A stretch of 64,000 bases of DNA from an uncultured Pseudohongiella sp. (lineage in GTDB: Bacteria; Pseudomonadota; Gammaproteobacteria; Pseudomonadales; Pseudohongiellaceae): NCBI GenBank assembly GCA_963974875.1, contig CAXBER010000005.1, positions 120,928-184,927 of the forward strand, written 5' to 3'. Of this stretch, positions 25,209-42,853 are shown piece by piece; within the stretch, counting starts at the first letter, position 1, and the number at the start of each line of letters is the position of its first letter. The notes beneath the pieces were generated by a model. It ran no database searches and was not told where the DNA came from. It saw only the letters and a program-made list of their open reading frames with translations. The position numbers and the translations under genes were made by a program.

Positions 25209-26434
25209 TCAGGCCCGCTGTGCACCAGCTCGCCCATTCTCTACAACAAAAGATCTGGCCGTGCTCAGGGTAGCATTCGGATCCACCAGGCGGGCATCAG
25301 GCATGCTGCGATGGGCGGTACGCCACTCGTCGGTATTGACTTCACACAGCATGTAACCACGCTCCCGGGTCTCGATAAAACCCACATGCGGGTTCTGTGG
25401 TAACAGGGCGTTATAGGTGTCCATGTCGCCGCCGCCCGAGGTGATGGAGGTGCCGACAAATTCCGAGGCCACTGTGGCCGAGTCGGCATCGCGCCAGTCC
25501 GCCTTGATGTCGGTCACCCAGTAGGAATGCACATCCCCGCCAAGAAACACGGGGTTGGTGGTACTGTAATCCTGCAGAGTCTGCACAATTCGATCGCGTG
25601 CCGCTGGATAACCACCCCAGCCGTCGGTGGCATAGACAGGCATCTGCGGTGACCCGCGATTGAATTCGGCGAACAGGGTCTGCTGCGCCAGCACATTCCA
25701 GCGCGAATCGCTGTCGCGCAGGTGGTTGCGCAACCAGCTCTCCTGCGTCTCGCCCAGCATGGTCCGCGAGGGATCATTGAACTCGTTACACAATGCCGGT
25801 GTGACAGCCGGGCCGCGACCATTGTAGTCACAGGGATGATCACTGCGGTACTGGCGGTTATCCAGCACATGGAAGGCCAGCAGGTTTCCGAACGCCACAC
25901 GCTGATAGATGTGCATGTCCGGTCCGCGCGGGCGGGCACTGCCACGCAGCGGCATCATCTCGTAGTAGGCTTGATAGGCAGCGGCCCGGCGCTGCCTTCC
26001 ACAGGCGTGGTGATGGCTCGGCCAACCGGGCTGACATGATCGCCGAAACGGAACCGGTACCAATAGTCGCGCCCCGGCGTCAAGCCCTGAAATTCGACAT
26101 GGACGCTGTGTCCCCACGCTGGCTCGGCGATGGCGGTACCACTGCGCACGATGCGATTCATCGACTCGCTCTCGGCCAGCTCCCATTGCACGGGCACTGC
26201 CGCATCCGGCATACCGTAGTCTTCCAGCATCGGCTGCGGCGCCAGCCGGGTCCAGATCACAAAACCGTCGGAAAGGGGATCTCCCGAGGCCACGCCCAGG
26301 GTGAACGGATCGTCGGGCAGGCGCAGTTGGGCATGGACGCGCGGGATGATGATGGCCGGGGCAGCCGCGATTGTGGCGATTGAGGCGCCGAGCAGTCCGG
26401 CTGTCTTCAGGAACTGTCTGCGCGTGCGATGCAT
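25209..26434 (-). pseudogene. phoD: Alkaline phosphatase D pseudogene (internal deletion with frameshift)
   Basis: Tat signal (RRQFLK) and PhoD_N ([16 protein letters not shown]) are in one frame. [23 protein letters not shown] and GDVHSYW are in another. The GDYIY/WDDHE core is missing. Confidence 0.85.
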
Positions 26435-26480
26435 GGTTTTTCTCCCGGCCAGTTATTTGCACCCAGTCTGGCCGGCGTTT

Positions 26481-26498
26481 GTGACAGTACGTGAACAG
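26481..26498 (-). promoter_or_regulatory. Pho-box-like element upstream of phoD
   Basis: Minus strand CTGTTCA-CGTA-CTGTCAC, 11-bp period. Confidence 0.5.
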
Positions 26499-26534
26499 AT
26501 TTGTGTCGGTTCCGAGACGGTTTTGTGTCGCGTG

Positions 26535-26660
26535 CAGTTCAGCCATGCCTTTTGCCCGGGCAATATCTCCAAGCGCCATGGCGATAAAGGCGGCATCTCC
26601 GTCGCCTTCCTCATTAGCTGCTTCCAGATAGGCAGCCATTTCCTCGCAACTGCGAAGTTG
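26535..26660 (-). pseudogene. Internal fragment of an addiction-module antidote (HigA/HI1420-like) gene
   Basis: LRSCEEMAAYLEAANEEGDGDAAFIAMALGDIARAKGMAEL; clear DNA similarity to 41815-41940; no start codon and no HTH C-terminus. Confidence 0.85.
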
Positions 26661-26738
26661 CCGTCCATTTGCTGGTTTTGTCAGCGTCCATTTGTAGGGT
26701 GGATGGGATATACCGTCACTTCGCACTTTCTTTACGGA

Positions 26739-26762
26739 ACTATTAAGCGTATTATTAATAGT
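26739..26762 (+). promoter_or_regulatory. TA operator inverted repeat
   Basis: ACTATTAA-N8-TTAATAGT upstream of the Phd-like gene. Confidence 0.6.
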
Positions 26763-26796
26763 GCTTTTAAGAGTTCTTTTGTTGGAGGCAATACTG

Positions 26797-27054
26797 ATGG
26801 GTGCATTAACTGCCAATGACCTGAAAACCCGCGGGGTCAGCGCCGTGGAAGACGGCCTGCAGCACAATGATGAGCTCGTGATCTCCGTGCGCGGCAAGGA
26901 GCGTTATGTAGTTATGGCGATTGAGACCTATAACCGACTGCGCGAGCTGGAGCTGGCTGCCGCCGTGGCCGAAGCCAAAGCCGACTACGCGGCGGGGCGT
27001 TTCCACACGGACAGCGTGGAAGATCACATAAAGCGGATCACCGATGACCTATAG
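26797..27054 (+). CDS. Phd/YefM family antitoxin
   Basis: MGALTANDLK...VISVRGKERYVVMAIETY; GGAGG RBS. Confidence 0.85.
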   Translation: MGALTANDLKTRGVSAVEDGLQHNDELVISVRGKERYVVMAIETYNRLRELELAAAVAEAKADYAAGRFHTDSVEDHIKRITDDL

Positions 27055-27319
27055 GCTGGTTTACACCGACAGCTATGTGCGCCGCGCAAAGAAGTTTATT
27101 AAGCGTCACCCGCAGATACTGGGGCAATACGAAAAAACACTGCAGCTGCTGGAACTCAATCCCCGCCATCCTTCCTTGCGGCTGCATAACCTGGAGGGTG
27201 CGCTCAGCGGCTTGTCATCGGTGTCGATCAACATGAGTTACCGCATTGTGTTGGAATTTGTGATTCAGGATCGCGACATCATACTGATTGATATTGGTAA
27301 TCATGATCGGGTGTACTGA
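27044..27319 (+). CDS. RelE/ParE-superfamily toxin
   Basis: HPSLRLHNLEG...SVSINMSYRIVLEF; overlaps the antitoxin stop. Confidence 0.88.
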   Translation: MTYRLVYTDSYVRRAKKFIKRHPQILGQYEKTLQLLELNPRHPSLRLHNLEGALSGLSSVSINMSYRIVLEFVIQDRDIILIDIGNHDRVY

Positions 27320-28689: not shown

Positions 28690-28829
28690 TAGGTGTTCCT
28701 GATAAGGCGTGCGTTTAAGAGAGCAGTTCTTTGAATTTTTTTATGTCTGGCATGCCGCTGTGAGACATCATATTGTGTTCTGCGTCATAAAAATAGCTGT
28801 ATGGCAGTTTGCCGGATCCGCTTTCTTTT

Positions 28830-28925
28830 AATGCCACAGACCCCGCGACCCTGCTCAATGACGATATCCACCTCAACCTGGTCTTTGTCCCGATAGTGGG
28901 TCAAGCGCAATTCGTCATCCAGCAC
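28830..28925 (-). pseudogene. Remnant of a DUF4143-type C-terminal domain (AAA ATPase family)
   Basis: Translates as LTHYRDKDQVEVDIVIEQGRGVCGI, the YR..EVD..GIE-type signature. Confidence 0.65.
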
Positions 28926-29113
28926 ACTGGTATTCGCCTCAACTCTTTATGGATCTTGCGGTATATAAGAGGGTTTCTTGGCAGCTTGTCCAATGCTTCT
29001 TCAATGCACAAAAGGAAGTCGTGACCCAAACCAACCCGCTTGCTCTCGTAGATCGTGAATTGTTCTTCAATATCAAATTCGGCCTCGGGCCGAACCGTTA
29101 GCGTGTAGACCAT
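28901..29113 (-). pseudogene. ParE/RelE-family toxin, 3'-truncated
   Basis: VRPEAEFDIEE...YESKRVGLGHDF...YRKIHKELRRIPV, then an out-of-family tail; the FPY-containing C-terminus is missing. Confidence 0.75.
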
Positions 29114-29773
29114 TTACTTGGACAGAATTCGGGCTTTGACAGTCGACCAGGTCGAGCCGACGTTTTGGTCTATCTCGAACGCTGACAGACGGCGATCCAA
29201 TTCCTCACGCTGGGGAGCCGTTACGTCGATCTCGGCCTCTTCAGCGATCACACTGTCCCACAACGCCTCCTCCATATGCGAAAAGCGATGCGAGCCACCA
29301 GTAAAGGTATGCGCCGTCATTTGCGGTCCCAGCGCATCAAGGGTCGCCCGGGAGTCAAGCAGCTCGTCAGCCATGTCCAGTAGCACCATGCCTCGCGCTG
29401 AGGGCAGGAAGTCCGGATAACCACTGGCGGTATCAGCGGTCAGGGTAAACGGCCGGCCATAGTGATCAAGATGGGAACCTATGTATTTGCTCAGTATGGC
29501 CGAAGGCGCCATGACCGGATTGATTGCCACAAAGGGTTTGCCTGTTGCCTCGGACAGCCTAGAGACCAGAAAGCCGCCCATGGAGGTGCCGATCAGCAGA
29601 TCCGCTTGCTGCAGCAAGGGCTCTACATCGGCCAGGACTTTTTCATACCCCTGCGAATAGTCAGGCGCGAAGGCGGAGACATTGGCTATTTTCCTAAGCG
29701 CCACCTGCTTGTCGCCGTTAGGGTCGACCTGGGAGCCGAAGCCGTGGATGTACAGGATGTTTAGCTTGGTCAT
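29114..29773 (-). CDS. Chimera: YqiA/YcfP-like esterase fused to the C-terminal part of a putative addiction-module antitoxin
   Basis: YIHGFGS, IGTSMGG and GGSHRF, followed by ALWDSV...QREELDRRL...TWSTVKARI. Confidence 0.75.
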   Translation of the reverse strand: MTKLNILYIHGFGSQVDPNGDKQVALRKIANVSAFAPDYSQGYEKVLADVEPLLQQADLLIGTSMGGFLVSRLSEATGKPFVAINPVMAPSAILSKYIGSHLDHYGRPFTLTADTASGYPDFLPSARGMVLLDMADELLDSRATLDALGPQMTAHTFTGGSHRFSHMEEALWDSVIAEEAEIDVTAPQREELDRRLSAFEIDQNVGSTWSTVKARILSK

Positions 29774-29843
29774 GCGGGTGCGTTCCTTCCGCAGCGAAGC
29801 CGCGATAGGGCTCCTCACGCTGTTGATTTTTTAAAGGGTATAC

Positions 29844-30131
29844 TCATGTGCGAACTAACTTGATTTGCAGTTCATACCCAACGGCATGCGCATACTTTTG
29901 CAGCGTAGCCAGCGAAGGGGAGTGTTTGCCATTGCCCAGGGAAGACTCCAGTCGCGTCACTGCTGGTGGTTTGGTTCCCATCAGTGCCGCAACATCGGCC
30001 TGGCTAAGCCCTGCCGTTTGTCTCGCCTTGAGCATCTGGCGCAGAAGAGTAAATTCTGGCGCCATGTCATCGTACGCAGCTTTTACCTTGGGATTGGAAA
30101 GTGCTTTTGGTTTTAATTCACTATGGTTCAT
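29844..30131 (-). CDS. XRE/HigA-like HTH antitoxin (orphaned)
   Basis: VKAAYDDMAPEF...GLSQADVAALMGTKPPAVTRLE...PSLATLQKYAHAVG; ATG at 30131. Confidence 0.88.
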   Translation of the reverse strand: MNHSELKPKALSNPKVKAAYDDMAPEFTLLRQMLKARQTAGLSQADVAALMGTKPPAVTRLESSLGNGKHSPSLATLQKYAHAVGYELQIKLVRT

Positions 30132-30159
30132 TTTGTCCTCACTCAATCGTCCATGACAT
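30128..30159 (-). pseudogene. Scar of an almost completely deleted HigB/RelE-like toxin
   Basis: ATGTCATGGACGATTGAG (MSWTIE) is fused to GTGAGGACAAAATGA, which overlaps the antitoxin ATG. Promoter TTGCGC-16-TACCAT and operator AACATA-N5-TATGTT (30171-30187) remain. Confidence 0.65.
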
Positions 30160-30204
30160 TGGAGAATGGTAACATATTTGTTATGTTGCGCAAGAGGTTT
30201 GGTG

Positions 30205-30260
30205 TTGGGTCAATGGCAACGCCTCCTCCATATGCGAAAATCGATGCGAGCCGCCGGGTG
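30205..30260 (-). repeat. 3' fragment of the YqiA-like gene
   Basis: GGCGGCTCGCATCGATTTTCGCATATGGAGGAGGCGTTGCCATTGA, near-identical to 42335-42379. Confidence 0.9.
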
Positions 30261-30289
30261 TGCGCTGCTGGTCAAATATCACCTAGCGA

Positions 30290-32005
30290 CTATTCCCGCC
30301 TGAAATTCCACTCCGCCAGCTGCTGACTGGCCCTCAATCTGGCGCGCTGAAACTCCATGGCGTGGAACATATCCTCCACCGATCTGCTGTCCGGTCCCAG
30401 CAAGGGTAATGCCGCCTCTGCCTCGATAAAAAACTGTTGGCTGAGTTTGTCGTCATCCAGATAGGCGGCTTCCCACCAGTGCAGAATATTGCTGCGTGAA
30501 TCCTTGAGCAGCGCCGCGGATGGCAGTTTGTCTGCTTTCGAATTGTTGGCCGCTGAGGTGCTGGGCATCAGGTTCCACAAGTCATTGTTGAACCAGCGCG
30601 ACCAGGGGAAGCAATGATCGACTGCATAATTGTCCAGTTTCAGTTTCCTGCTGGTCCACACGCAACTGACTGGATTTCCCGAAGCTGAGAGGGCGCCAAT
30701 GCGTGCGCGCACACCGGCAGTGTCACGATCCGCGTCAATCCAGTCAAACACATTTGCATAGACGGCGTTGTCGTACTGGTGGCGCCAGGACTGCATCAGC
30801 CGTATCCACTCATTGAAAATGGCGGGTTCAATCCAGCAGGCATATTGGCTGAAGCATTGCCACAAATTCGCCGGGATGCGGAAGACGCCAAATCGGGCGA
30901 GATTGCCTTTGGTGATTTGCCAGGGTTTGGTGATCCGGCCGGCAGAGCCAGTGCTGCACTCGAATACCTGCCGGTTCTGGCCAGGCCAGGTGATGAAGTT
31001 GGCGGGCATGCGTTTGATGTTGACGCAGGCGTCACCGATCGCGCCCACCAGGCGGCGTGAAGTCTCGGCATCGAAGGTGGCGCCAACACGCAGGTCGAAG
31101 GGCGACAGGTCCTGCAGGCTGTAGAAGTTGTTCTTGCTGGCCCAGCCGTAGCCGCGTTGATTGCGGTGGTCGGCCGTGGGTGTCTGAATAAGATTATGAC
31201 GCAGCACCAACGGCATATAGGTTTTCAGCCAGTACAAACCCACCAGCCCAAAGGGGATATCGACCCAGTCGTCGGAGCGCTGCAACACCATGCCCGGCGC
31301 GCCTTCTGCAATTCGTACCAGCACCCGCAGCAGACCGAGTTTATAGGTAGCAGCCTTGTTGTCGTTGACGATGATGTGCCGCAGCAGCGGCAGAGCGCCC
31401 GTGCCATCGTCGGGCAGTTTGAAGGCCAGGTAGTCCCAGCTGACTTCAGGGCGTGAGACGTCGGCAATTGCGCGAGTGTCCCGCTTGCTGATCAGCGCCC
31501 GGTTCTGCGCCAAGCGAATGATGTCGTTGGTCTCGAAGGGATGGAAACGCCCGGCATCATCTGGCCCATGCCGTAGTGAGATGATCAGCAAACCGTCGGG
31601 TGCCAGCAACTCACTGATGATGCGCATGGCGCGCTCGTGCTCGCTGGGTTTTAAGTGCATCCAGACGGCGCTGATCAGGATTAGCTGAAAGCGCTGGTCC
31701 AGCGCACGCAGGCGTTTGAGTTCAGGCAGGCGATCATCCAGCCAGTTGACCGAGCCTTGCTGCGCAGCCTGACTCGACGTGTGTTGCTCGCCCAGCTTGC
31801 GTAGCTCATCTGCTGGCTCGACCGCAATAACGTCCCAGCCCTTGCCGGCAAGCCAGGTTGCGTCGCGACCGGAGCCGGCGCCGATGTCGCAGGCCAGGCC
31901 TGGTTGGTCTGGCAACAGATCTGACCAGCTTTGATGCAGGAGCGCCGGATCCGCAGACTGGTAGAAGCGGAACAGGTCGTTGGCGTGGTCGGAGTAGTAG
32001 GTCAT
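30290..32005 (-). CDS. Class I SAM methyltransferase fused to a C-terminal HNH endonuclease
   Basis: DIGAGSGRD, SAVWMHL; NNKAATYKLGLL; VDHCFPWS..NNDLWNLMP...NNSKADK; ATG at 32005. Confidence 0.85.
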   Translation of the reverse strand: MTYYSDHANDLFRFYQSADPALLHQSWSDLLPDQPGLACDIGAGSGRDATWLAGKGWDVIAVEPADELRKLGEQHTSSQAAQQGSVNWLDDRLPELKRLRALDQRFQLILISAVWMHLKPSEHERAMRIISELLAPDGLLIISLRHGPDDAGRFHPFETNDIIRLAQNRALISKRDTRAIADVSRPEVSWDYLAFKLPDDGTGALPLLRHIIVNDNKAATYKLGLLRVLVRIAEGAPGMVLQRSDDWVDIPFGLVGLYWLKTYMPLVLRHNLIQTPTADHRNQRGYGWASKNNFYSLQDLSPFDLRVGATFDAETSRRLVGAIGDACVNIKRMPANFITWPGQNRQVFECSTGSAGRITKPWQITKGNLARFGVFRIPANLWQCFSQYACWIEPAIFNEWIRLMQSWRHQYDNAVYANVFDWIDADRDTAGVRARIGALSASGNPVSCVWTSRKLKLDNYAVDHCFPWSRWFNNDLWNLMPSTSAANNSKADKLPSAALLKDSRSNILHWWEAAYLDDDKLSQQFFIEAEAALPLLGPDSRSVEDMFHAMEFQRARLRASQQLAEWNFRRE

Positions 32006-32145
32006 CTTGGCGCCACATTTTGAATTGTATCGAGTCTTGACGAGCACAAGTCGATTGTCAATGGTTGGGCTTGCTTGCGATAGCATGGCCAGACGACTAT
32101 GCTTGATCGATTGATTGGCTTAGGCATTAGCAAGGAGCAAGCAGG

Positions 32146-33006
32146 ATGGCCAGAAGGCGACGAACCAGCCCGATTGAGGATCTGATGGATGTTGTATCAA
32201 AGTTGCCATGGTGGTTCGGTCTGACGCTGGCCATAGTGTCCTATGTTTTCTTAAGCAACTACGCTGCAAATTCAACTGCTGCGATTGAAGCTAACACGGG
32301 GAATTCAGCGGCGTTTGTAAGAGCTACTTACCTGCATACGCTTGCAAGTTTCGGCCAGTACCTGCTGCCGGGCGTGTTTCTTATAGGCGCTATCGCCTCC
32401 CTGATAAACCGAACTAAACGCAAATCATTGTTCCGCAACGCAGTGAATTCAGAGTCCGGCTCAGCGGTGCGGGAAATGAGCTGGCGGGAATTCGAAATGC
32501 TGGTAGGGGAACTCTTCCGCAGGCGCGGATATGCAGTTGCAGAAAACGATGGCAGTGGCGCCGATGGCGGGGTCGATCTGAAATTACGCAAAGGCTCCGA
32601 AACCTTTCTGGTGCAATGCAAACAATGGCGAGCTTACAAAGTGTCGGTAAATATTGTTCGCGAACTTTACGGCGTGATGGCAGCAGAAGGAGCCGCAGGC
32701 GGGTTTGTGGTGACATCGGGGGTATTTACATCTGACGCAAAAGCGTTTGCCAGTGACAAAAATGTCGAGCTGATTGATGGTTCGCAGTTGAGCGCTCTTT
32801 TGCGGGAAACGCAATTGAAAAGCACCGCGGACAGCTGGCAAGCTAAACCTGACATGGAGACCGTCAGGCATAACACGAAGACACCGCCATGCCCTCAATG
32901 CGGTGGTGTAATGGTGAGGCGCACTGCCAGACGAGGACAAAATGCGGGGCGGGAATTCTGGGGGTGTTCGAGTTATCCGGGGTGCCGTGGGATTGTGAAT
33001 GGATGA
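32146..33006 (+). CDS. mrr: Mrr-family restriction endonuclease with N-terminal TM segments and C-terminal topoisomerase-type C4 zinc ribbon
   Basis: WREFEMLVGELF, ADGGVDL, VQCKQW; CPQCG...FWGCSSYPGC. Confidence 0.88.
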   Translation: MARRRRTSPIEDLMDVVSKLPWWFGLTLAIVSYVFLSNYAANSTAAIEANTGNSAAFVRATYLHTLASFGQYLLPGVFLIGAIASLINRTKRKSLFRNAVNSESGSAVREMSWREFEMLVGELFRRRGYAVAENDGSGADGGVDLKLRKGSETFLVQCKQWRAYKVSVNIVRELYGVMAAEGAAGGFVVTSGVFTSDAKAFASDKNVELIDGSQLSALLRETQLKSTADSWQAKPDMETVRHNTKTPPCPQCGGVMVRRTARRGQNAGREFWGCSSYPGCRGIVNG

Positions 33007-33074
33007 TGGGGGTCGCGCGACTTTCACCAAACCGGCGTGGGTGGCTGACGACACGAATCAACAATGAGGACTGT

Positions 33075-33353
33075 ATGAAAGAGATGTTGAGAGCTATCTT
33101 TTCGCCGGTGCTGGCGGTGTTTGAGAAAGGCGAACCTGCCGAGAGCTACCGGCCATCGCACCGGAAAATTTTGCTGGCCGTTGGCCTGCTGTTTTTCGTC
33201 CTGTTTGCCGTGTCTTTATATGTGGCGGTTAATTCGGCGCAACTGGCATCGTTTCTGCCGGCTTTGATTTTTGGGGTGGTGAGTCTGGTGAGCTTGGTGG
33301 TGGCGGGTCTTGGGCGTGATGTGGCTGTGGCGCGGATCTGGGGACTGAAGTAG
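33075..33353 (+). CDS. Small two-TM hypothetical membrane protein
   Basis: ATG at 33075 with GAGG RBS; two hydrophobic segments. Confidence 0.65.
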   Translation: MKEMLRAIFSPVLAVFEKGEPAESYRPSHRKILLAVGLLFFVLFAVSLYVAVNSAQLASFLPALIFGVVSLVSLVVAGLGRDVAVARIWGLK

Positions 33354-33358
33354 GGGGT

Positions 33359-33889
33359 TCATTTGGTTTGGTGGGGTTGGCGGAAGAATCGGTAGGACGC
33401 AAATACTGTGACAATGGCAAAGAGACCAACGGTTGGAGCTACGGTCACTGGTAAATACCATCCATCACCCCATGGTGCGCTAATAAAAACGAAAAACAAA
33501 TTCAGGCCAGTAAGCGCATAAAAGCGATAGTAGCTTGATGACGGCGCCAACTGGTAGTCGACATCGGAGAGTGAAAACGTGGATACCCCGTTTCTAAGCG
33601 TCAGCGTACTGATCCAGGTGACAAGAACAGGCGCTGATATCATTACCGCAAGAACACTGATCGTCTCGAATGACACCGGATCGTGTGTCAATTTCTTAAT
33701 GAATGCGTACCCGAATAACGGCACCGCCAGCATGCATTGAGCGACAAGAGAACACCTGAAGATCTGCAGTATGTTGAGAAACCGTTGGGGCTTGAAAGTA
33801 TAAGCCGACAGCTCTTGCCGCCTGTTCTGTGACAAAGGATTCGCCACACCGTTCAAATAGTAGATATCGCCATTCTTGTATATCGCCAT
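33359..33889 (-). CDS. Hypothetical membrane protein
   Basis: 176-aa ORF with about four TM segments; convergent with the previous gene. Confidence 0.6.
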   Translation of the reverse strand: MAIYKNGDIYYLNGVANPLSQNRRQELSAYTFKPQRFLNILQIFRCSLVAQCMLAVPLFGYAFIKKLTHDPVSFETISVLAVMISAPVLVTWISTLTLRNGVSTFSLSDVDYQLAPSSSYYRFYALTGLNLFFVFISAPWGDGWYLPVTVAPTVGLFAIVTVFASYRFFRQPHQTK

Positions 33890-33937
33890 GTCTTTTCATT
33901 TCTCGTGTTTGTTGATGGGCAATTCATTGATCAGGTT

Positions 33938-33963
33938 GCGATAGCCCGTTGAGGGGCTATCGC
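33938..33963. terminator. Hairpin (terminator- or REP-like)
   Basis: GCGATAGCCC-GTTGAG-GGGCTATCGC. Confidence 0.5.
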
Positions 33964-33997
33964 CGCCCCCGGCTCTGAGACAGTTTCGTGTCACTGG

Positions 33998-34114
33998 CTA
34001 GCGGTTTATAGCAGTTTCAGCCCACAAAAATTCGATTAATGGCAGCGCTTCATCCATATGCGAAAAACGATGCGAGCCGAAGCCGTGGATGTACAGGATG
34101 TTTAGCTTGGGCAT
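33998..34114 (-). pseudogene. Collapsed YqiA-like minigene (38 aa)
   Basis: MPKLNILYIHGFGS joined directly to HRFSHMDEALPLI; start and end of the gene are retained. Confidence 0.85.
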
Positions 34115-34202
34115 GATTTTTCCGTCTATTGGGGAACTGGACTTCCGGCGATTTCAGGGCTACTGTTGCCCTCCTCTAACACACTGATACAGTGAGGTTT
34201 TC

Positions 34203-36455
34203 ATGCGTGGCGCGTTAATTGTTGTCTTGCCCTTCATCCTTGTCGCCTGCGAGCGGGCAGCAACACCGATCACGGACGGGTCCGGTGAACAACTGACCAT
34301 CGAGCGTCTCTACGGCTCGCCAGATCTGACCGGCCCAACTGCCCGCAATGTGCAGTTCTCACCCGATGGCAGTCGCATCAGCTTCCTGCGCGCAAAAGTT
34401 GATGACCGCACCGTGCAGGATTTGTGGGCAATGGATGTTGCCACCGGCGAGGCCTATTTGCTGGTTGATGCGCGCCAGCTGGTACCAGAGGAGCGCGAGC
34501 TGACGGAGGCTGAAATCCAGTTCCGCGAGCGATCGCGCATCACCTCTTCCGGGGTGGTGACCTATCAATGGGACGAAACAGGCGCAGCGGTTCTGGTGCC
34601 TCTCGACGGCGATGTGTTCTACGTTGATGTGGAAAGCGCACAAACCCGCCGCCTGACCGAAACAGAGGCGTTTGAGACCGACGCCAAGGTCAGTCCAAAC
34701 GGCGGCTTCGTCTCCTTTATCCGCGACCAGAATCTATGGATACATGATCTGTCTACCGGGGAAGAGCGTGCCCTGACGACCGAAGGCGGTGGTGAAATCA
34801 GCTGGGGCATGGCCGAGTTTGTTGCCCAGGAAGAGATGAGCCGCTACACCGGTTACTGGTGGTCGCCCGATGACAGTCGCATCGCGGTTGCACGAGTGGA
34901 TGAAAGCCCGGTGATGGTGGTGGAGCGCTTCGGCATTTCTGCCGACGCTGTGTCGGTGTCGGAACAGCGGTATCCGCGGGCCGGCACGGCAAATGCCCTG
35001 GTGACACTGCACGTCATCGACCTTGGCTCTGGTGACATCGGTGAGGCCTCTGGCGAGATGCGCGAGATGGACCTGGGTAGCGATACCGACATCTACCTCA
35101 GCCGCGTCAACTGGAGCGAGTCTGGCGAGACCTTATGGGTGCAGCGACAGAATCGGGCGCAGACGCAGTGGGACTTGCTTGCACTTGATCCGCGCACGGG
35201 TGCTGAAGACACAACACGACGTATCACAGAGCAGGCAGATACCTGGATCAATCTGGCGCACGATCTGCGAACACTTGCCGGGGGCGGTCTGCTCTATCTC
35301 AGCGAACAATCCGGCTTTCGCCATATCCGTCATGTCGGCGCAGATGGCGTAGCCCGCGATATCACATCGGGTGATTGGGTGGTCGATAGCCTGGAAGCCG
35401 TCGACGAGGACGCGGGTACTGTCTGGTTCTCCGGCTGGCGGGACACACCATTGGAGCGCCACCTGTACTCAGTGAACCTTGATGGCGGCGAACCGCAGCG
35501 TATTACGTCTGGCGAAGGACGCTGGAACGTATCGGTCGGTTCTGGCGGGTCAGGCTTGATCGGCACCTATTCTGACATCGACACCCCGCCCAACACCGGG
35601 CTGTATTCCATTGCAGGTGAACGCATTGCCTGGGTGGAGGAAAACCCGCTGAACCAGGCTCATCCTTACGCGCCTTATCTGGCGCGTCATGTCCGGCCCG
35701 AGTATGGCACGCTGACGGCTGCAGACGGGCAGACCGAACTGCACTGGCAGATGTACCGGCCGGACCACTGCACTGCGGCGACGCCCTGTCCGGCCATTGT
35801 TCAGGTGTATGGCGGGCCAGGCGTACAGACTGTCACCAGGGGATGGCAGTCACTGCGCGATCAGATTCTTGCCCAGTCCGGCTACGTGCTTTTTAAGGTC
35901 GATAACCGGGGCAGTTCAAACCGCGGCCATGCCTTTGAAGCGCCGCTGCATCTGCGCATGGGTATTCTTGAAGTTGAGGACCAACTGGCCGGGCTGGACT
36001 GGCTGCAGGGGCGCGATTTTGTGGACGCCGACAGGGTGGGGCTGTGGGGCTGGTCCTATGGTGGCTACATGACATTGATGACCACGCTGCAGGCGCCGGG
36101 CAGGTTTGCCGCAGGCATTGCCGGGGCGCCGGTTACGGACTGGGCGCTATACGACACACACTACACCGAACGCTTCATGTCGACCCCGCAGGACAATGCC
36201 GAAGGGTATGACGCCGGCTCGGTCTTTGCCCACCTTGATGGTTACCAGACCCCTCTGCTGATTATTCACGGCATGGCGGATGACAACGTGACGTTTGATC
36301 ACTCCACCCGATTGTTCGCAGAGCTGCAAGAGCGCGGCCAGGTGTTCGAGATGATGACCTACCCAGGCCAACGCCACGGCATCCGTCCGCCCCCTCTGCA
36401 GACTCACTTGCTCAGAACGCAAATGGCGTTTTTTAACCGGTACTTGCGCGATTAA
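34203..36455 (+). CDS. S9 family dipeptidyl-peptidase IV-like lipoprotein
   Basis: Lipobox-like LVAC; AQEEM.RYTGYWWSPD; GWSYGGY; HGMADDNV; YPGQRHG. Confidence 0.93.
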   Translation: MRGALIVVLPFILVACERAATPITDGSGEQLTIERLYGSPDLTGPTARNVQFSPDGSRISFLRAKVDDRTVQDLWAMDVATGEAYLLVDARQLVPEERELTEAEIQFRERSRITSSGVVTYQWDETGAAVLVPLDGDVFYVDVESAQTRRLTETEAFETDAKVSPNGGFVSFIRDQNLWIHDLSTGEERALTTEGGGEISWGMAEFVAQEEMSRYTGYWWSPDDSRIAVARVDESPVMVVERFGISADAVSVSEQRYPRAGTANALVTLHVIDLGSGDIGEASGEMREMDLGSDTDIYLSRVNWSESGETLWVQRQNRAQTQWDLLALDPRTGAEDTTRRITEQADTWINLAHDLRTLAGGGLLYLSEQSGFRHIRHVGADGVARDITSGDWVVDSLEAVDEDAGTVWFSGWRDTPLERHLYSVNLDGGEPQRITSGEGRWNVSVGSGGSGLIGTYSDIDTPPNTGLYSIAGERIAWVEENPLNQAHPYAPYLARHVRPEYGTLTAADGQTELHWQMYRPDHCTAATPCPAIVQVYGGPGVQTVTRGWQSLRDQILAQSGYVLFKVDNRGSSNRGHAFEAPLHLRMGILEVEDQLAGLDWLQGRDFVDADRVGLWGWSYGGYMTLMTTLQAPGRFAAGIAGAPVTDWALYDTHYTERFMSTPQDNAEGYDAGSVFAHLDGYQTPLLIIHGMADDNVTFDHSTRLFAELQERGQVFEMMTYPGQRHGIRPPPLQTHLLRTQMAFFNRYLRD

Positions 36456-36615
36456 TGCAACGAAGGCAAGTCAATCTAAGAGGTGGGTAACTACAGAGAG
36501 TCGCGTGAGCGACGTGCTTTAGAGCTTCGCATAAATAAGCCGTATTAACTAATATCTTGAAAAACACCGGGATAGTAAAAAGTACTTGCAATTTGCCGGG
36601 CGCCTTGTAATGTCT

Positions 36616-36639
36616 GTCCCATGTCCTAGGACGCGGGAC
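36616..36639 (+). promoter_or_regulatory. Palindromic operator upstream of the HTH-NTase-PP2C operon
   Basis: GTCCC-AT-GTCCTAGGAC-GC-GGGAC. Confidence 0.6.
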
Positions 36640-36658
36640 GGTAAATGAGGTAATATTA

Positions 36659-37303
36659 ATGAAAAGTCAAGACATCGGACTGCTTTTAAAACTGGAATCC
36701 ATGGGCAAGTCAGGCCTGAGCCCGCAGCGTAAACTGCTGTCCGCATGGCCACATGACTGGAAAGACTGGGCCAGTAGTCCAGGTGATGCGGATTGGGCGG
36801 GCGACTGGGAAGGGTTGGATCTTGCGATCTCCGGGCCTTCGATCTATAGCGCTCGCAGCTTGGAAAAACTCACAGGCATCAGTAAGTCTCAGATAAATCT
36901 GTCCTTACGCCGCTGTGTCGATGTCGGGCTTGCCAAATACGACCGTAAAACAGGTGTGCCCAAGGCGAACTCCAGGGCGCTCTACGAGTTCATCAAATAC
37001 GGCCTAAAATACGTGTTTCCCGCCAAACCCGGTGAGCTGGTGCGCGGCATCGCAACCACATTCAGCGCGCCCATCCTGAAAGACAAGTTGTTGAGTGCCG
37101 GGGACTTCAAGCTGGTTTGGCCGAATGCTGACGGCAACACCAAGGGGTTGGCGATAGAACCCCTGTTCAAGTCAGTAGGCTATGCCGTGCGTTACGATCC
37201 CACGCTGTATGCCATGCTGGCTCTGGTCGATGCCATTCGGATCGGGCAGCCTCGGGAAAAAAACCTGGCGCAGGCCATGTTGCAGGAGTTACTCCAGCCA
37301 TGA
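36659..37303 (+). CDS. Winged-HTH protein, putative type IV TA-like antitoxin/regulator
   Basis: YSARSLEKLTGISKSQINLSLRRC HTH-like segment; LYEFIKYGLKYVFP; ATGA overlap with the next gene. Confidence 0.65.
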   Translation: MKSQDIGLLLKLESMGKSGLSPQRKLLSAWPHDWKDWASSPGDADWAGDWEGLDLAISGPSIYSARSLEKLTGISKSQINLSLRRCVDVGLAKYDRKTGVPKANSRALYEFIKYGLKYVFPAKPGELVRGIATTFSAPILKDKLLSAGDFKLVWPNADGNTKGLAIEPLFKSVGYAVRYDPTLYAMLALVDAIRIGQPREKNLAQAMLQELLQP

Positions 37304-38010
37304 GTCACCACGATACTCATATCGCCATGTTAAAAGCCGTTGCCAAGGCGCTGGGCGATAAATTGCGTTCGGAAATGGCGTTTGTTGGCGGCAGCACAAC
37401 AGGCTTGCTGATTACCGATGAGTTTACACGCGAACAGGTGCGGGGAACTGATGACGTTGATTTGATTGTCCATGTAATTGGTCACCGAGGATTTAATCTG
37501 CTGCAGAAGGAGCTGGCTGGACACGGTTTTCAAGTCGCAATGCCCATTCCTGGCGAGGCTCCACCTATTTGTGCCATGACACTCGGCCAGTTGCGGGTGG
37601 ATTTCATGCCCGATGATGAAGCAGTGCTGGGTTTCAGCAACCGGTGGTATCAGGAGGCCATTGCGACTGCCTGGCCTCATGATCTGGGAGATGGCTTGCA
37701 GATCAAGCTGGTTTCACCTCCGTATTTTATTGCTACCAAGCTGGAGGCATGGAATGGGCGAGGCAATGGCGATGCCCTGGAGAGCAGGGATATCGAAGAC
37801 ATCATCAACCTAGTGGACGGTCGGCCGGAGTTGCTGGATGAGGTCGCAGAGTGCTCACCAGAACTGCGTCAGTACATTGCTGTGGAAGTCGTGAAACTGC
37901 TTGAAGACAGCAACTTCGAGTACGCCATACAGAGTCACACCGGTAACTCATCTGAGCGCGAGTCCATTATATTTTCTCGCTTCGAGAAACTTGGCGGGAT
38001 CAGCGCTTAA
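37300..38010 (+). CDS. AbiEii-like nucleotidyltransferase
   Basis: FVGG...RGTDDVD; KLEAW..RG....SRDIEDI. Confidence 0.75.
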   Translation: MSHHDTHIAMLKAVAKALGDKLRSEMAFVGGSTTGLLITDEFTREQVRGTDDVDLIVHVIGHRGFNLLQKELAGHGFQVAMPIPGEAPPICAMTLGQLRVDFMPDDEAVLGFSNRWYQEAIATAWPHDLGDGLQIKLVSPPYFIATKLEAWNGRGNGDALESRDIEDIINLVDGRPELLDEVAECSPELRQYIAVEVVKLLEDSNFEYAIQSHTGNSSERESIIFSRFEKLGGISA

Positions 38011-38747
38011 TGCAGGTTTCATGGAATAGTCGACAAGGACGCCAACGGCAAAGCAACAATGACGCTGCGACCATCGCCATCGGTGAGAACCAGCTGGTTG
38101 CCGTATTGGTAGATGCGGCGGAATCCCGCCAGTCAGGTGGTAACCAGGCCAGAGAGCTCGCACACTATTGGAGCCAGTTTCTGGCCCGGGCGGCGATGAG
38201 TCTTGCATTTCCTGTAGATGCCATTCAGCTGGATAAGCTGATGCGCCAGGAACAGGCGATCTTACGACACCGCTATCTGCACGAGATAGCCAGCTACTGT
38301 CTGGTCGTGCTCAATCCCGACTCGGGGCAGTACCAGGTTTTTCACTGTGGTGACACCCTTGCGGGTATAACGGTATCGCCCGAAGCCATTGACGGTGTGC
38401 AGTGGTTATACCCACCACATACGCTCACGCAGCAATACGCCGCCATTGGATCATCACCGGTGACGCAGTGCGTCAATGGCGAATCCGGTAGTACCAGTCC
38501 GGTATTAACCCGATGCCTGAATTCGCGACGCTTTCATTGCCCCGATACGCTCCACGGAACGCTTGATTCAGAGATCAGTATGGTGATTGCCAGTGATGGC
38601 TATTGGGATAAAAACACTGATGACGACAGCAGCGTCATTTTGATTCGTTCTGGTCAGCAGTCTGTGCAGTCCGACTCGGACTGTGACAACCTGTTCGTTT
38701 TTCCGGAAAGCACAGCGGTCACACGACAAGGAAGCCTCGCAACATGA
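38010..38747 (+). CDS. PP2C/PPM-like phosphatase
   Basis: RQSNND, VLVDAAE, HCGDT, LTRCL, ASDGYW and DDSSVI motifs; TAATG coupling. Confidence 0.7.
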   Translation: MQVSWNSRQGRQRQSNNDAATIAIGENQLVAVLVDAAESRQSGGNQARELAHYWSQFLARAAMSLAFPVDAIQLDKLMRQEQAILRHRYLHEIASYCLVVLNPDSGQYQVFHCGDTLAGITVSPEAIDGVQWLYPPHTLTQQYAAIGSSPVTQCVNGESGSTSPVLTRCLNSRRFHCPDTLHGTLDSEISMVIASDGYWDKNTDDDSSVILIRSGQQSVQSDSDCDNLFVFPESTAVTRQGSLAT

Positions 38748-38817
38748 ACACCGCTCCCACCAAAAAGCGGAACAGGCCGTTGGCGTGGTCTGAGTAGTAG
38801 TTCATCTTGTGGCAGCT

Positions 38818-41010
38818 CTAGTCCAGCACTCTCAGAAACTCACCCACCACACGGTATCGGCTGGTATCGTCTTCGCTCAGCACAAGCGTCTCAAATGACG
38901 GGTCAGAAGATCGCGGTTTCAGCAGGATTCTCTGATGTGCCCAGCTATCGCCATCCTCCGACTTGATGCTCTCGTATTCCTTGACGGTGTAGTGCGAACC
39001 ACTGTCGTCATCAATGATGTCTGAATGCTCCACCAGGACGATCTTGCCGTTGCGGCTACCGCCCTGATCGGTCCGGAACAGGCACACGGCGCCATTGGGA
39101 ATTATCCTGTTCATGGACTCCCCCTGAACCTTGCATGCGAACAGGTTTTTGTCAGCACGCTCTCCCTCAGGCAGAACAATCCAGTCGTCTATTTCGGCCC
39201 GTTGCTGCTCGCTGAAGCTGCCAGCGGCCGGGAGCAGACTATACAGCGGCACGGCATTGACGTAAGGCTCGGCTTTCACTTGCGGCAATTCGACAACATT
39301 ATCTGACGGCGTGATTTCGCGCGGTATGTGCTTAGCCAGGTACTCGCGGAAATCGGGATCGCAGGCATAAACAAAGGTGCCTCTGATACCCCGCAGCATG
39401 ATGGTTTTGTAGATGTTGAGAATATAACGCTTCAGTTGTTCCGGATCGGTGATCGACTGTTTGCCGTTGCGATCAAAATACAACTCAGGCCGGATGATTA
39501 TTTCGCCCTTGGTCTTGTCATAGCCGATCTCACGGCCAAATATGATACCGGCATAGTTCAGATCATATCCCTGTGTGGTGTGGATACAACCCACTTCAGT
39601 TGCTGATCCTGCCGCGTTGATCCAGTCCGAGCTGGTGCTGTTCCATCGCAGTTTTATGTTTTCGATTTCAATGTCGAACTTGTCGCGCTCTTTATTCGAT
39701 ACCCAGGGCCATGAATAACCGGCAATCATTCGGGATAAACCGATCTCGCTCTCTTTTTCCTGAATTTTCTGCTGGAACTCACAGAAACTGTCAAACAGTT
39801 TGAACTCGTAGGACCTGGACGTATGCTTTGCCGACGCAGGCAGGCGGGCATTGAGCAGGTCGTCAACAAACTTCACATAGGGATTGCCGCCCAGCACGCG
39901 GAACTGGGAGACCAGTTCCTGTACTTCGGTGTCTGGTGAGGCTTTCAGGGCTGAGAATACGTCTGCGGCGGCATCCGAGGGTTTTATGGTCTGATCGGTG
40001 TCATAGAAGAATACCGCCCGGCTGGATTGTTTGCGAACCCAGTCAACTTCGCTGCACTGCTTTGGATCAAACCCCAGTGCGACCGATGCTTTGTCGAAGG
40101 CGTGATAGTAGGCGCCGAGGTTTATCCGCTGACGTAATCGATGGGCCTCATCCACCAGCACGATGTCGTAATGCTGTTTCGCCAGCTCTGCTGGGCCAAT
40201 GACCATGCTGGATTTCAGGCCCGCTACGTTCGAGAAAGCTTTTTGCAAGGTTTTCCGGAAAGACGACATGGGTACAACCAGTGCCATGCGTGGTTTTTGC
40301 CCGTATTTTTCTCGCAGCCGTATCAACAGATCCTTGATTTCGGCCTCTTCGCTGGAGAACTCCCGGAAATTGAATTCATCATTTTCAGACTGCAGCAGTT
40401 TGAAGAGGAATATCGCCAGCACGGATTTACCCGTTCCCGCACCACCCTGAACCACCAGCGTGCGTGTGGTGTCGCTCACCAATGAGTGCATGATACCCAG
40501 CAGCCCCTGGCGTTGGTCTGCCGACAGCGCTTTATAGGGTGAGTATTTGAACAGGTCAGAGTTGTCCAGATGATCCAGCGAGTGCTGGGTAACGCCTTTT
40601 GCCCGAAGCTGATCCCATAAATGCTGGAAGATGTCGGCGTAGAGGATGTCCTTCTGGTAGTAGTTGTGATCCGCCAGCCCCAAGTTGCCGTTCAGCAGTT
40701 TGAACCGGCCATCGGCAGACATGTATTTGATCAGATTGGATTCAATATCCAGCGTCGCTGACTTGTTGAACTTCAGGCTGGTGATCAGATGGACCACCGA
40801 CAGATGCCGTTTGGCGTCATGTTTCAGGTGGGTAGTCATGCGGGCGACCGCATCAGCAGTCTCGCCAACGTAAGCCAAACGCTTATTGTCATCGCTCAGC
40901 ACATAGACCAGCGGCCAGTAGTTCTGCGCAAAGGAGTTGGCGCGGATATCGCTCAGCTGCTTGTCACTGAAGACAAAACGGCTGACTTCAATGACAGGAG
41001 ATGTGCTCAT
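38818..41010 (-). CDS. GIY-YIG-like nuclease / DUF2075 (Schlafen group-3-like) helicase / S24 peptidase-like fusion
   Basis: VY...YVGET; GGAGTGKS, VDEAHRL, HTTQGYDL; VQGESM...VKEY. Confidence 0.8.
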   Translation of the reverse strand: MSTSPVIEVSRFVFSDKQLSDIRANSFAQNYWPLVYVLSDDNKRLAYVGETADAVARMTTHLKHDAKRHLSVVHLITSLKFNKSATLDIESNLIKYMSADGRFKLLNGNLGLADHNYYQKDILYADIFQHLWDQLRAKGVTQHSLDHLDNSDLFKYSPYKALSADQRQGLLGIMHSLVSDTTRTLVVQGGAGTGKSVLAIFLFKLLQSENDEFNFREFSSEEAEIKDLLIRLREKYGQKPRMALVVPMSSFRKTLQKAFSNVAGLKSSMVIGPAELAKQHYDIVLVDEAHRLRQRINLGAYYHAFDKASVALGFDPKQCSEVDWVRKQSSRAVFFYDTDQTIKPSDAAADVFSALKASPDTEVQELVSQFRVLGGNPYVKFVDDLLNARLPASAKHTSRSYEFKLFDSFCEFQQKIQEKESEIGLSRMIAGYSWPWVSNKERDKFDIEIENIKLRWNSTSSDWINAAGSATEVGCIHTTQGYDLNYAGIIFGREIGYDKTKGEIIIRPELYFDRNGKQSITDPEQLKRYILNIYKTIMLRGIRGTFVYACDPDFREYLAKHIPREITPSDNVVELPQVKAEPYVNAVPLYSLLPAAGSFSEQQRAEIDDWIVLPEGERADKNLFACKVQGESMNRIIPNGAVCLFRTDQGGSRNGKIVLVEHSDIIDDDSGSHYTVKEYESIKSEDGDSWAHQRILLKPRSSDPSFETLVLSEDDTSRYRVVGEFLRVLD

Positions 41011-41327
41011 AACTCATTGTATTTCCTGGCGGTTCCCTTGGCCTTGCTGACCGGGTACTTCTCCTCGTTCTGCTTGATCTTGGCCAGCACGATGTCTTTG
41101 ACATCCAGATCACAGGCATCGGCCAGCAGAAACGCAAACGCGAAAACGTCCGCCAATTCCTCTCTAATCTTCTGTTTGTCGGCTTCTTCAGGCTGTTTCC
41201 ACAGGAAAGCTTCAAGTAGTTCGCCGGCCTCTATGCTCAGCGCCAGCGACAGATCCTTGGGGTTGTGGAATTGCTGCCAGTCCCGTTCGTCGCGAAATTT
41301 CTTGAGGGCGTCTATGATTTCATTCAT
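41007..41327 (-). CDS. MazG-like nucleotide pyrophosphohydrolase
   Basis: RDWQQFHNPKDL...EAGELLE...EELADV...KNEEKYP. Confidence 0.9.
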   Translation of the reverse strand: MNEIIDALKKFRDERDWQQFHNPKDLSLALSIEAGELLEAFLWKQPEEADKQKIREELADVFAFAFLLADACDLDVKDIVLAKIKQNEEKYPVSKAKGTARKYNEL

Positions 41328-41363
41328 GTTTTTGGTCTGTCGGTGTTCAGGTTGGTGGGTCGT

Positions 41364-41525
41364 ATGATTTCATGGAAGGCGCTGGCGGGCAATGGGCGCG
41401 CATGGTTCTCCCAACTTGACTCGAAACAAATAGATATTGGGAGCGGCAAGCGTGTATTGGTTCAAGATGGCAAGCTGAATAAGAAATATCAAATAACGCT
41501 GCCGTTATTTTTGTTCAAGGAGTAA
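41364..41525 (+). pseudogene. C-terminal remnant of an AbiEi-type (type IV TA) antitoxin
   Basis: AWFSQLDSKQIDIGSGKRVLVQDGKLNKKYQITLP; no upstream body. Confidence 0.65.
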
Positions 41526-41682
41526 GGCATTGGGATTTAAAGACATTTTTAAAAACAGGTTGAACTACTTGTCAGGGCGCTCCCCCATGTGCAGGTGGGA
41601 AAACAATTAAACCAGACGGGCTAAGCTCATGCACTTCGCGCAGCATGGTTTGACCGCCCTTATTCTCTAGTGGCCGATAAGG

Positions 41683-41976
41683 TCACGCTGCTGGCTTGAT
41701 ATGGAGCTGTAACCCCAGCGCCTTGGCAACTTTCAGCACAGTGCTTAGCTGAGGGTTACCGTCAGCTGAAAGTGCCTTGTACAGGCTTTCGCGTCCCAGG
41801 CCTGTCTCTCGGGACAGTTCGGCCATACCTTTTGCCCGTGCAATGTCTCCCAGCGCCATTGCGATAAAGGCGGCGTCTCCGTCGCTCTCAGCAATAGCTG
41901 CTTCCAGATAGGCAGCCATTTCCTCGCGACTGCGAAGATGCTTTGCTACATCGTATTCATGAAGTTTAGTTGTCAT
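41683..41976 (-). CDS. Addiction-module antidote (HigA/HI1420-like HTH)
   Basis: YDVAKHL..EEMAAYL...ALGDIARAKGMAELSRETGLGRESLYKALS.DGNP. Confidence 0.92.
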   Translation of the reverse strand: MTTKLHEYDVAKHLRSREEMAAYLEAAIAESDGDAAFIAMALGDIARAKGMAELSRETGLGRESLYKALSADGNPQLSTVLKVAKALGLQLHIKPAA

Positions 41977-42274
41977 TACCCGACTCCAAGCCTTTAACCA
42001 ATTCATAGGCCAGTTCAATATCATCACGCTGGCTCGACTTATCTCCGCCGCAGAGCAGGATGATGAGCACATCGTCCCGCTCCGTGTAATAAACCCGGTA
42101 ACCAGGGCCCACATCGACCTTCAGTTCGGAGACTCCGTGCTTCAGATTACGGGAAGTCCCCGGGTTACCCAGCGCCAAGCGTTGGATACGGGCCTGTACC
42201 CGAGCCCTACCGCTTATATCCTTTAAGCGATCCAGCCACTTGGTGAACTGGACGGTGGTTTGGATCCTTTTCAT
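41966..42274 (-). CDS. Addiction-module killer (HigB/RelE-like, HI1419 family)
   Basis: F..WLDRLKD...RIQRL..GNPG...GVSELKVDVGPGYRVYY...LLCGGDKSSQ..DI; ATG at 42274. Confidence 0.92.
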   Translation of the reverse strand: MKRIQTTVQFTKWLDRLKDISGRARVQARIQRLALGNPGTSRNLKHGVSELKVDVGPGYRVYYTERDDVLIILLCGGDKSSQRDDIELAYELVKGLESGNDN

Positions 42275-42280
42275 GTGGCT

Positions 42281-42308
42281 ATTGTATCTCATGGGATACA
42301 ATTTGCAA
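42281..42308 (-). promoter_or_regulatory. TA promoter and operator
   Basis: Minus strand TTGCAA-16-TACAAT overlapped by ATTGTATC-N6-GATACAAT. Confidence 0.75.
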
Positions 42309-42310
42309 GA

Positions 42311-42853
42311 CTAATTTGGGCTCTGCGTCTGGATCAACGGCAACGCCTCCTCCATATGCGAAAATCGATGCGAACCGCCGGCGAAGATATGCACCGTCAT
42401 TTGCTGACCCAGCGCATCCAGGGTCGCCCGGGAATCAAGCAACTCGTCAGCCATGTCCAGCAGCACCATGCCCCGTGCTGAGGGCAGGAAATCCGGATAA
42501 CCCCTGGCGGTGTCAGCGGACAAGGTAAACGGCCGGCCATAGTGATCAAGATGAGAGCCGATGTATTTGCCCAGTATCGCCGAAGGCGCCATGACCGGAT
42601 TGATCGCCACAAAGGGTTTGTCTGTTGCTTCGGACAGCCTGGAGACCAGAAAACCGCCCATGGATGTGCCGATCAGAAGATCTGGTTGCGACAGGAAGGG
42701 GTCTACGTCGGCCAGGACTTTTTCATACCCCTGTGAGTAGTCGGGCGCGAAGGCGGACACATTAGCGATTTTCCTGAGCGCGACCTGCTTGTCGCCATTG
42801 GGGTCGACCTGGGAGCCGAAGCCGTGTATGTACAGGATGTTTAGTTTGGTCAT
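42311..42853 (-). CDS. YqiA/YcfP-like alpha/beta hydrolase (intact copy)
   Basis: YIHGFGS, IGTSMGG, AINP, DELLD and GGSHRF motifs; ATG at 42853. Confidence 0.9.
   Translation of the reverse strand: MTKLNILYIHGFGSQVDPNGDKQVALRKIANVSAFAPDYSQGYEKVLADVDPFLSQPDLLIGTSMGGFLVSRLSEATDKPFVAINPVMAPSAILGKYIGSHLDHYGRPFTLSADTARGYPDFLPSARGMVLLDMADELLDSRATLDALGQQMTVHIFAGGSHRFSHMEEALPLIQTQSPN

Follow-up and report, generated by a model that had tools for sequence, protein, structure and literature searches.

Four esterase gene copies and the genes at their 3' ends

The DNA analyzed here, hereafter the window, is a 64-kb stretch (64,000 nucleotides, nt) of the forward strand of contig CAXBER010000005.1 (positions 120,928 to 184,927; assembly GCA_963974875.1) from an uncultured Pseudohongiella sp. 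A short block of sequence is repeated four times in it, at the 3' end of a yqiA-like gene and of its remnants, each followed by different genes, and the original prediction took this block for a landing pad on which toxin-antitoxin (TA) and defense cargo had been assembled. We propose that the four blocks are probably the 3' ends, coding for the catalytic histidine, of four esterase gene copies that were derived separately from an accessory gene family, and that they mark whole-gene homologous exchange at TA/defense hot spots followed by erosion, an ordinary turnover with no dedicated landing site. The four copies, designated c1 to c4, are as follows.

29114-29773, minus strand: c1, a fusion gene in which 171 esterase codons (29261-29773, with the block at 29261-29296) continue in frame into the C-terminal end of an Unstab_antitox antitoxin (29114-29260); Pfam PF05728 and PF09720.
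30206-30262, minus strand: c2, a bare esterase 3' fragment consisting of the block (30217-30252) and CCATTGACC; tblastn match to residues 159-178.
33998-34114, minus strand: c3, a collapsed 38-codon minigene in which codons 1-14 (MPKLNILYIHGFGS) run in frame into the block (34043-34078) and a native-type tail (HRFSHMDEALPLIEFLWAETAINR).
42311-42853, minus strand: c4, an intact accessory YqiA/YcfP-family (UPF0227) esterase gene of 180 amino acids (aa), with the block at 42341-42376; translation.

A degenerate 36-mer drawn from the block matches the 64-kb window at these four places, has no match in 100 shuffles, and its 30-nt core has no further copy in the whole 3.68-Mb, 25-contig genome. The fourfold repeat is real, as are the contexts that had been described for it: a fusion gene, a bare 3' fragment, a collapsed minigene and an intact gene, established by sequence and Pfam. 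The repeats are not identical. Copies c2, c3, and c4 have ~52 nt in common, made up of the block and CCRTTRAYC, while similarity to c1 is limited to the block and extends as far as ...GCGTTG. Over the 52 nt c2 and c3 are 81% identical with a longest common run of 14 nt; c1 and c2 have a run of 24 nt in common, the c3 block differs from the other three at 4-6 of 36 positions, and the c2 block is c4-like (94% over 52 nt). The copies are homologous over ~560 bp, starting ~20 nt ahead of the ATG and ending ~10 nt beyond the block, and therefore the repeated unit is the whole gene and not the block.

The block encodes GGSHRFSHMEEAL of a YqiA/YcfP (UPF0227) esterase. The c4 product has a precomputed PF05728 match and aligns to the esterase of PDB 4FLE, with GTSMGG (nucleophile motif GxSxG) and the C-terminal GGSHRF both in register; the GGSHRF of the block lies over GGNHAF of 4FLE, which we take, from general knowledge of alpha/beta-hydrolases, to be the catalytic histidine motif. 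The c1 paralogue is 93% identical to c4 in aa sequence and matches PF05728 with 54 bits against a cutoff of 21, and from their sequences both are assigned to the YqiA/YcfP (UPF0227) family of alpha/beta-hydrolases. Beyond the block motif the gene reads ...EEALPLI and then a variable tail of 6-17 residues, the block being the last conserved coding stretch ahead of the fast-evolving C-terminal tail. An identical c4 gene lies in the same context on metagenome contig L023. The c3 minigene, which reads MPKLNILYIHGFGS followed directly by HRFSHMDEAL..., is also called as a 38-aa product on TARA contigs, and TARA and ENA contigs match the window's own arrangement, minigene included. The fusion point of c1 falls after ...EEAL and the joined part is the C-terminal 48 residues of the antitoxin; an exact look-up of the fusion protein gave no record.

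The modules that follow the copies, or their remains, are these.

28715-28925, minus strand: fragment of a DUF4143-type AAA ATPase gene, abutting the truncated ParE gene.
28922-29113, minus strand: truncated ParE-family toxin, 63 of 98 codons; its 96% identity to the ParE region of locus L030 stops at 28922.
29844-30193, minus strand: HigA1, an orphan antitoxin (29844-30146), with a higB1 ghost upstream (~30147-30193); Pfam HTH_3 and alignment with the intact higB1-higA1 of genome G017.
41683-42301, minus strand: intact HigB/HigA pair directly 3' of c4, HigB-like Gp49 at 41966-42301 and HigA-like dnstrm_HI1420 at 41683-41976; Pfam.
26535-26661, minus strand: fragment of a HigA2-type antitoxin gene, 89% identical to 41815-41941 (repeat family D3), a further eroded TA module.

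Together with a 176-aa membrane protein gene 3' of c3, the truncated ParE, the higB ghost with its higA, and the intact pair of Gp49-type HigB and HI1420-type HigA agree with the downstream genes originally described. An intact 98-aa ParE is present in locus L055, and an intact 419-aa homologue of the DUF4143-type protein is a backbone gene of genome G012 (L079:6100-7359). Ahead of the intact HigB/HigA pair (higBA2), a promoter scan finds a promoter-like site at 42308-42281 (TTGCAA-16-TACAAT); this predicted promoter starts 3 nt past the c4 stop codon and 33 nt beyond the block. An operator-like palindrome of higBA1 sits near c2, at a distance like that of the higBA2 promoter.

Edges of c1 and c3 lie at short direct repeats

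Short direct repeats at both ends of a lost segment, of which one is kept, are found at c1, at c3, at higB1, in locus L083, and in a variant from a landfill metagenome (X3). The layout from which c1 derives is kept in the relative L030/L055, where the esterase 3' end is followed by ~110 nt, an intact antitoxin beginning MEFQSLTVSERITLAEALWDSV..., and ParE. There the antitoxin sequence GCTGAGGCGTTGTGGGAC and the block end GGAGGAGGCGTTG have 9 nt (GAGGCGTTG) in common, which lie in the codons for ...EEAL in the esterase and for ...AEAL in the antitoxin, and c1 is accordingly the product of a ~170-bp deletion between two GAGGCGTTG copies. In c3, CACGGCTTCGGCTC (HGFGS) is joined to GGCTCGCATCG (GGSH) through the common GGCTCGCA. 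This short repeat is present a third time in the gene, at IGSHL, and the X3 strain shows a different collapse at the c3 position, from the IGSHL copy to the block. With GGCTCGCA at GFGS, IGSHL, and GGSH, the block start is therefore the copy nearest the 3' end in a family of internal repeats.

In this collapse of the X3 variant approximately residues 99-158 are lost between GGCTCGCATC repeats; its joint of 34073 to 42555 was considered as an intact c3-type gene, which was ruled out at lower stringency in favor of this internal deletion. Further deletions fall elsewhere. The higB1 gene beside c2 was lost between TTGA repeats, as the alignment with G017 shows, and in L083 on TARA contigs a deletion between CGCCTTCG repeats removes residues 33-89 and shifts the frame. 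In L055 the copy proximal to the dipeptidyl-peptidase IV (DPP-IV) gene has lost everything between a point 12 nt ahead of its ATG and one 51 nt ahead of the block, and a copy in genome G014 lacks residues 1-46, its 5' truncation lying at residue 47. Across the relatives the junctions are accordingly scattered along the gene, at -12 nt of the ATG, at residues 33, 47, and 89, at 51 and 7 nt before the block, and at the block start, which is the distribution that had been named in advance as speaking against a landing pad.

The block was said to survive when the rest of the gene is lost, and this holds for 7/7 damaged copies. Simpler explanations than a protected site can be put forward, each of them unproven: copies without the block would go unrecognized; deletions running further would strike an addiction module, the TA promoters lying ~30 nt beyond the block; and imports anchored on the DPP-IV side would consume resident copies from the 5' end. 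The block may look like a unit in itself because it is the last conserved stretch, starts at the most 3' GGCTCGCA(TC) repeat, and lies ~30 nt from the TA promoters.

The esterase gene is an accessory flank of variable slots in the genus

Two neighbors recur beside the esterase gene, and both are present in the window.

34203-36455, plus strand: DPP-IV gene, divergent neighbor of c3; Pfam; 95-97% nt identity in relatives.
46996-47952, plus strand: WYL-domain regulator gene, the esterase gene's other conserved partner in the genus, 4 kb from c4; Pfam.

The close esterase subfamily is present in 6/22 species of the genus, so that this flank gene lies outside the core genome, and other genera of the family have a relative at ~30% identity only. 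The distribution rests on protein search; the DNA pattern of the block, run over 80 relatives, found G017 only, the species representatives being too diverged. The gene stands head-to-head with DPP-IV in G017, L029, L055, and L082, and within 0.1-6 kb of the WYL regulator in G020 (two loci), G006, G014, and L027; the window has both positions, with c3 beside DPP-IV and c4 near WYL. What follows the gene 3' varies: higBA1 in G017 and L029, higBA2 in the window, L027, and L023, a HigB-like/HTH pair in L082, an antitoxin-ParE module in L055 and at c1 of the window, Ysc84 in L055, and others. One flank gene thus borders different cargo in different relatives.

Two of these neighborhoods have features of their own. 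In L029 (4418-7864) DPP-IV and the esterase gene are separated by an insertion of three genes, for a TonB-dependent receptor, an HdeD-like membrane protein, and a DUF3775 protein; the stop of the DUF3775 gene overlaps the esterase start codon. On contig 13 of G020 (L059/L060) an island comprises a distant esterase allele together with genes for a WYL regulator, an SNF2 helicase, and an Eco57I-like enzyme; the island ends at an integrase-like gene beside Sel1-repeat and Suf genes.

The interval between c2 and c3 (30290-33889) holds four genes.

30290-32008, minus strand: methyltransferase-HNH gene; Pfam.
32146-33006, plus strand: Mrr-type endonuclease gene; Pfam.
~33070-33353, plus strand: 92-aa membrane protein gene.
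33359-33889, minus strand: 176-aa membrane protein gene, 3' of c3.

Copy c2 starts 27 nt past the stop codon of the methyltransferase-HNH gene and 7 nt ahead of the block. All four genes have homologues in the equivalent chromosomal neighborhood of the esterase-less species G012, G003, and G018, and judged from these homologues the interval consists of genus backbone genes, with no incoming mobile cargo.

The copies are diverged and c1 appears mosaic

At the nt level c1 and c4 are 90% identical, and all close esterase alleles differ by 7-15%, compared with 95-97% identity of the adjoining DPP-IV between the same genomes. Over its 5' 70 nt, c3 matches the intact, DPP-IV-adjacent allele of L082 at 95.7% identity. 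Copy c1 appears to combine two types. Its upstream region and 5' end are WYL-type, the first 57 nt being c4/L027-like, and its 3' end is G017-type: over the last 114 nt it differs from G017/L029 at 4-5 sites, whereas the 5' part has 7-9 differences per 57 nt (3-8 mid-gene), a contrast drawn from few sites; c2, with its c4-type block, lies just upstream. Each copy has its closest relative in another genome and would on this evidence be an independent arrival.

A possible trace of recombination between copies comes from the X3 metagenome. One of its contigs joins 29260 to 30217 across 24 shared nt, giving the order methyltransferase, block, antitoxin remnant, and the c1 body and higA1 have zero depth in that run. 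Read most simply, a related strain has undergone a deletion between its c1 and c2 repeats. As a separate observation, the DPP-IV gene (34203-36455, plus strand) is 95-97% identical between genomes whose adjoining backbone genes are ~82% identical, an excess that suggests recent interspecies exchange of the esterase/DPP-IV unit.

Proposed origin of the four copies

The mechanism that we put forward builds on what was observed, namely the anatomy of the copies, their microhomologies, the scattered junctions, the restriction of the gene to some species, and the apparently mosaic allele, and we infer the mode of import and the reason for the sparing of the 3' end. The esterase gene would be the conserved flank of hypervariable TA/defense hot spots, one beside DPP-IV and one beside the WYL regulator. 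Segments from related strains would be imported by recombination, with the whole gene and neighbors such as DPP-IV serving as homology, and such import would leave several diverged copies in direct orientation, each with a different module 3' of it. Three of the four would then have been destroyed by deletion, c1 via GAGGCGTTG, c3 via GGCTCGCA, and c2 from the 5' side. To the whole of this, the identity of the blocks as ends of separately derived esterase copies together with exchange and erosion, we assign a probability of roughly 0.68. The idea of a homologous-exchange anchor fares accordingly: it is plausible for the whole ~560-bp gene, given the different cargo, the apparently mosaic c1, and the c1/c2 recombinant, and is not supported for the 39-bp block.

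Several points weigh against this proposal. Homology between alleles with different cargo fades ~10-25 nt past the block, which a fixed crossover site predicts likewise, and three different TA families lie directly 3' of the gene, as they might if modules entered there by preference. The block is kept in every damaged copy and none is 5'-only (tblastn found no 5'-only esterase fragment in 16 loci); the sample is small and biased, and a directional process is possible. The import is deduced and not observed, the order of events is not uniquely reconstructible, and the metagenome joints come from assembled contigs, not reads. If the proposal is right, a repeat that resembles an integration site can arise by ordinary means, from a catalytic motif at a gene end, internal short repeats, and adjoining addiction modules.

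Alternative explanations

Among the alternatives, the one that survives best is an accretion of cassettes with no recombinase of their own, in which RecA excises circles of esterase gene plus module and a Campbell-type single crossover re-inserts them, so that arrays are stacked; we regard it as doubtful, at perhaps one chance in five. All four copies do lie in direct orientation, and two lineages, that of the window and that of L055, carry arrays in which the same antitoxin-ParE module occupies different ranks. The WYL-type 5' end and G017-type 3' end of c1, taken with the c4-type block of c2, form the reciprocal chimera expected from a single crossover, and a c1/c2 recombinant exists in the metagenome. 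Against these stand the facts that neither a circle nor a tandem-duplication joint was seen, that the c2-c3 interval is backbone and holds no module, that non-replicating circles have no obvious transfer route, and that the mosaic signal is based on few sites; ordinary double crossovers and illegitimate joins would give equal patterns. In an extension that we hold just as tentatively, the accessory esterase gene would be a portable 560-bp homology cassette, integron-like without attC, with the downstream addiction modules guarding the junctions from deletion. If modules do move by single crossover between gene copies, this would be a simple recombinase-free way to stack defense cargo.

The landing-pad idea in its strict form holds that the block is the core of an attachment (att) site in the esterase 3' end, with an integrase that is elsewhere or lost, and that each element accreted in tandem left behind one copy of att. 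Integrative elements classically target the 3' end of a gene and are bordered by direct repeats, homology ends soon after the block, and on contig 13 of the distant relative G020 a weak PF22022 (Phage_int_M) match lies 3 kb downstream of the esterase gene. We nevertheless consider this reading largely refuted and very improbable. No tyrosine or serine recombinase domain was found by Pfam scans of the 30 proteins across 25-62 kb, in agreement with the earlier statement that there is no local integrase. The repeats that would bound each unit are not an identical core (c2 and c3, as given above, match at 81% of positions in their shared stretch). Nor is there one common junction nt: on the 5' side the borders fall at -51, -7, and 0 as counted from the block, c1 breaks at its 3' edge, and the c1 and c3 edges are accounted for by microhomology. 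The gene has three separate 5' starts, which accretion at a 3' site would not yield, and the c2-c3 'insert' is no foreign unit relative to an empty site, as its genes are present in esterase-less species.

The block itself also lacks the marks of such a site. In a codon alignment of ten alleles scanned in 12-codon windows (~170 windows), its nt identity ranks 10-32, and segments around GTSMGG and MVLLDMADE are conserved more strongly. Its third-position identity (synonymous codons) ranks 40-106, which is ordinary, and therefore nothing beyond protein coding constrains the block; a constraint at the nt level was dropped on this ground. The block has no hairpin or inverted repeats, and as single-stranded DNA each of the four blocks, taken with its flanks, folds less well than shuffled sequence (z +0.9 to +2.2), so that neither the folding inverted repeats of an integron attC site nor, within 25-62 kb, an IntI integrase nearby is found. 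With no recombinase in 25-62 kb, no identical core, scattered junctions, and a backbone interval, the attachment-site reading was discarded, and with it the original view of the block as an integration site.

Least probable of all is an in-situ tandem duplication of one esterase-plus-TA unit with later divergence and decay, which the single orientation and the similar design (an esterase gene followed by a type II TA pair) would suit and which was discarded because the copies differ by at least 10% against 95-97% identity of DPP-IV between species and the nearest relative of each copy is in another genome, the TA pairs moreover coming from three unrelated families.

Surroundings of the locus

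The right half of the window is a defense island that ends at tRNA-Leu and RNase R. On its right side the tRNA-Leu(CAG) gene (61952-62038, minus strand) and then RNase R close off ~20 kb containing the WYL regulator, a GmrSD-like gene, DUF4007/PAPS-reductase phosphorothioation genes, a helicase, and an SMC-like ATPase. No integrase is adjacent to this tRNA gene, and a search for tRNA-Leu-derived direct repeats as the far border of the island found none. In the complete, esterase-less genome G012, MazG is directly followed by RNase R.

To the left of c1, a gene for a PhoD-like phosphatase (25209-26434, minus strand) appears split over two frames, with the N-terminal domain and a TAT (twin-arginine translocation) signal at 25955-26434 and the C-terminal part in the open reading frame 25209-26897; it is either a pseudogene or a sequencing frameshift. 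An apparently intact pair of a Phd/YefM-like antitoxin and a YafQ/RelE-like toxin lies at 26761-27319 (plus strand) and is 88% identical in G018, where it stands beside backbone genes. Just downstream of a DUF2075/S24 gene, 38765-38809 (minus strand) is a 45-nt remnant of the 5' end of the methyltransferase-HNH gene (93% to 31965-32009), which is found in G017 as well (L028:5612-5667); apparently the final gene of an ancestral MazG-DUF2075-methyltransferase operon was lost.

Comparison with known systems

In streptococci, integrative and conjugative or mobilizable elements accrete in tandem at an att site in the 3' end of a gene. The likeness lies in direct repeats of a gene 3' end that separate successive units; the difference is that here there is no integrase and no identical core, several full 5' ends are present, the borders are accounted for by deletion at microhomologies, and one 'unit' is backbone. 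A second parallel is homology-facilitated illegitimate recombination with microhomology-mediated deletion, reportedly described by de Vries and Wackernagel in 2002. One homologous anchor together with joins of 3-10 nt at short repeats would yield 5'-truncated resident copies and in-frame collapses of the kind seen here. The term is in current use (e.g. PMC6382021).

Chromosomal type II TA pairs cluster in spots of high turnover, where toxins are lost first and orphan antitoxins and fragments remain (Belot et al., 2026; PMC13617665), and the higB1 ghost, the truncated ParE, and the HigA2 fragment of the window show such loss. That work ties TA spots to transposases and integrases; here none of those was found, and it is a repeated esterase gene that marks the borders. 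A further parallel is with the core defense hotspots of Pseudomonas aeruginosa (PMC10250203) and the hot spots in P2/P4 elements (PMC9122126), which have conserved flank genes. As in those systems, the content of a slot beside a conserved marker gene varies among close relatives; a local recombinase is not required, and the exchange is usually put down to homologous recombination in the flanks. The locus described here differs in that the flank gene is itself accessory (6/22 species) and is present in several copies at one locus, three of them degraded, so that its remnants punctuate the island. It is a clear natural record of the turnover of TA and defense modules in a little-studied marine genus, with intact modules next to toxin-deleted, fused, and fragmentary stages.

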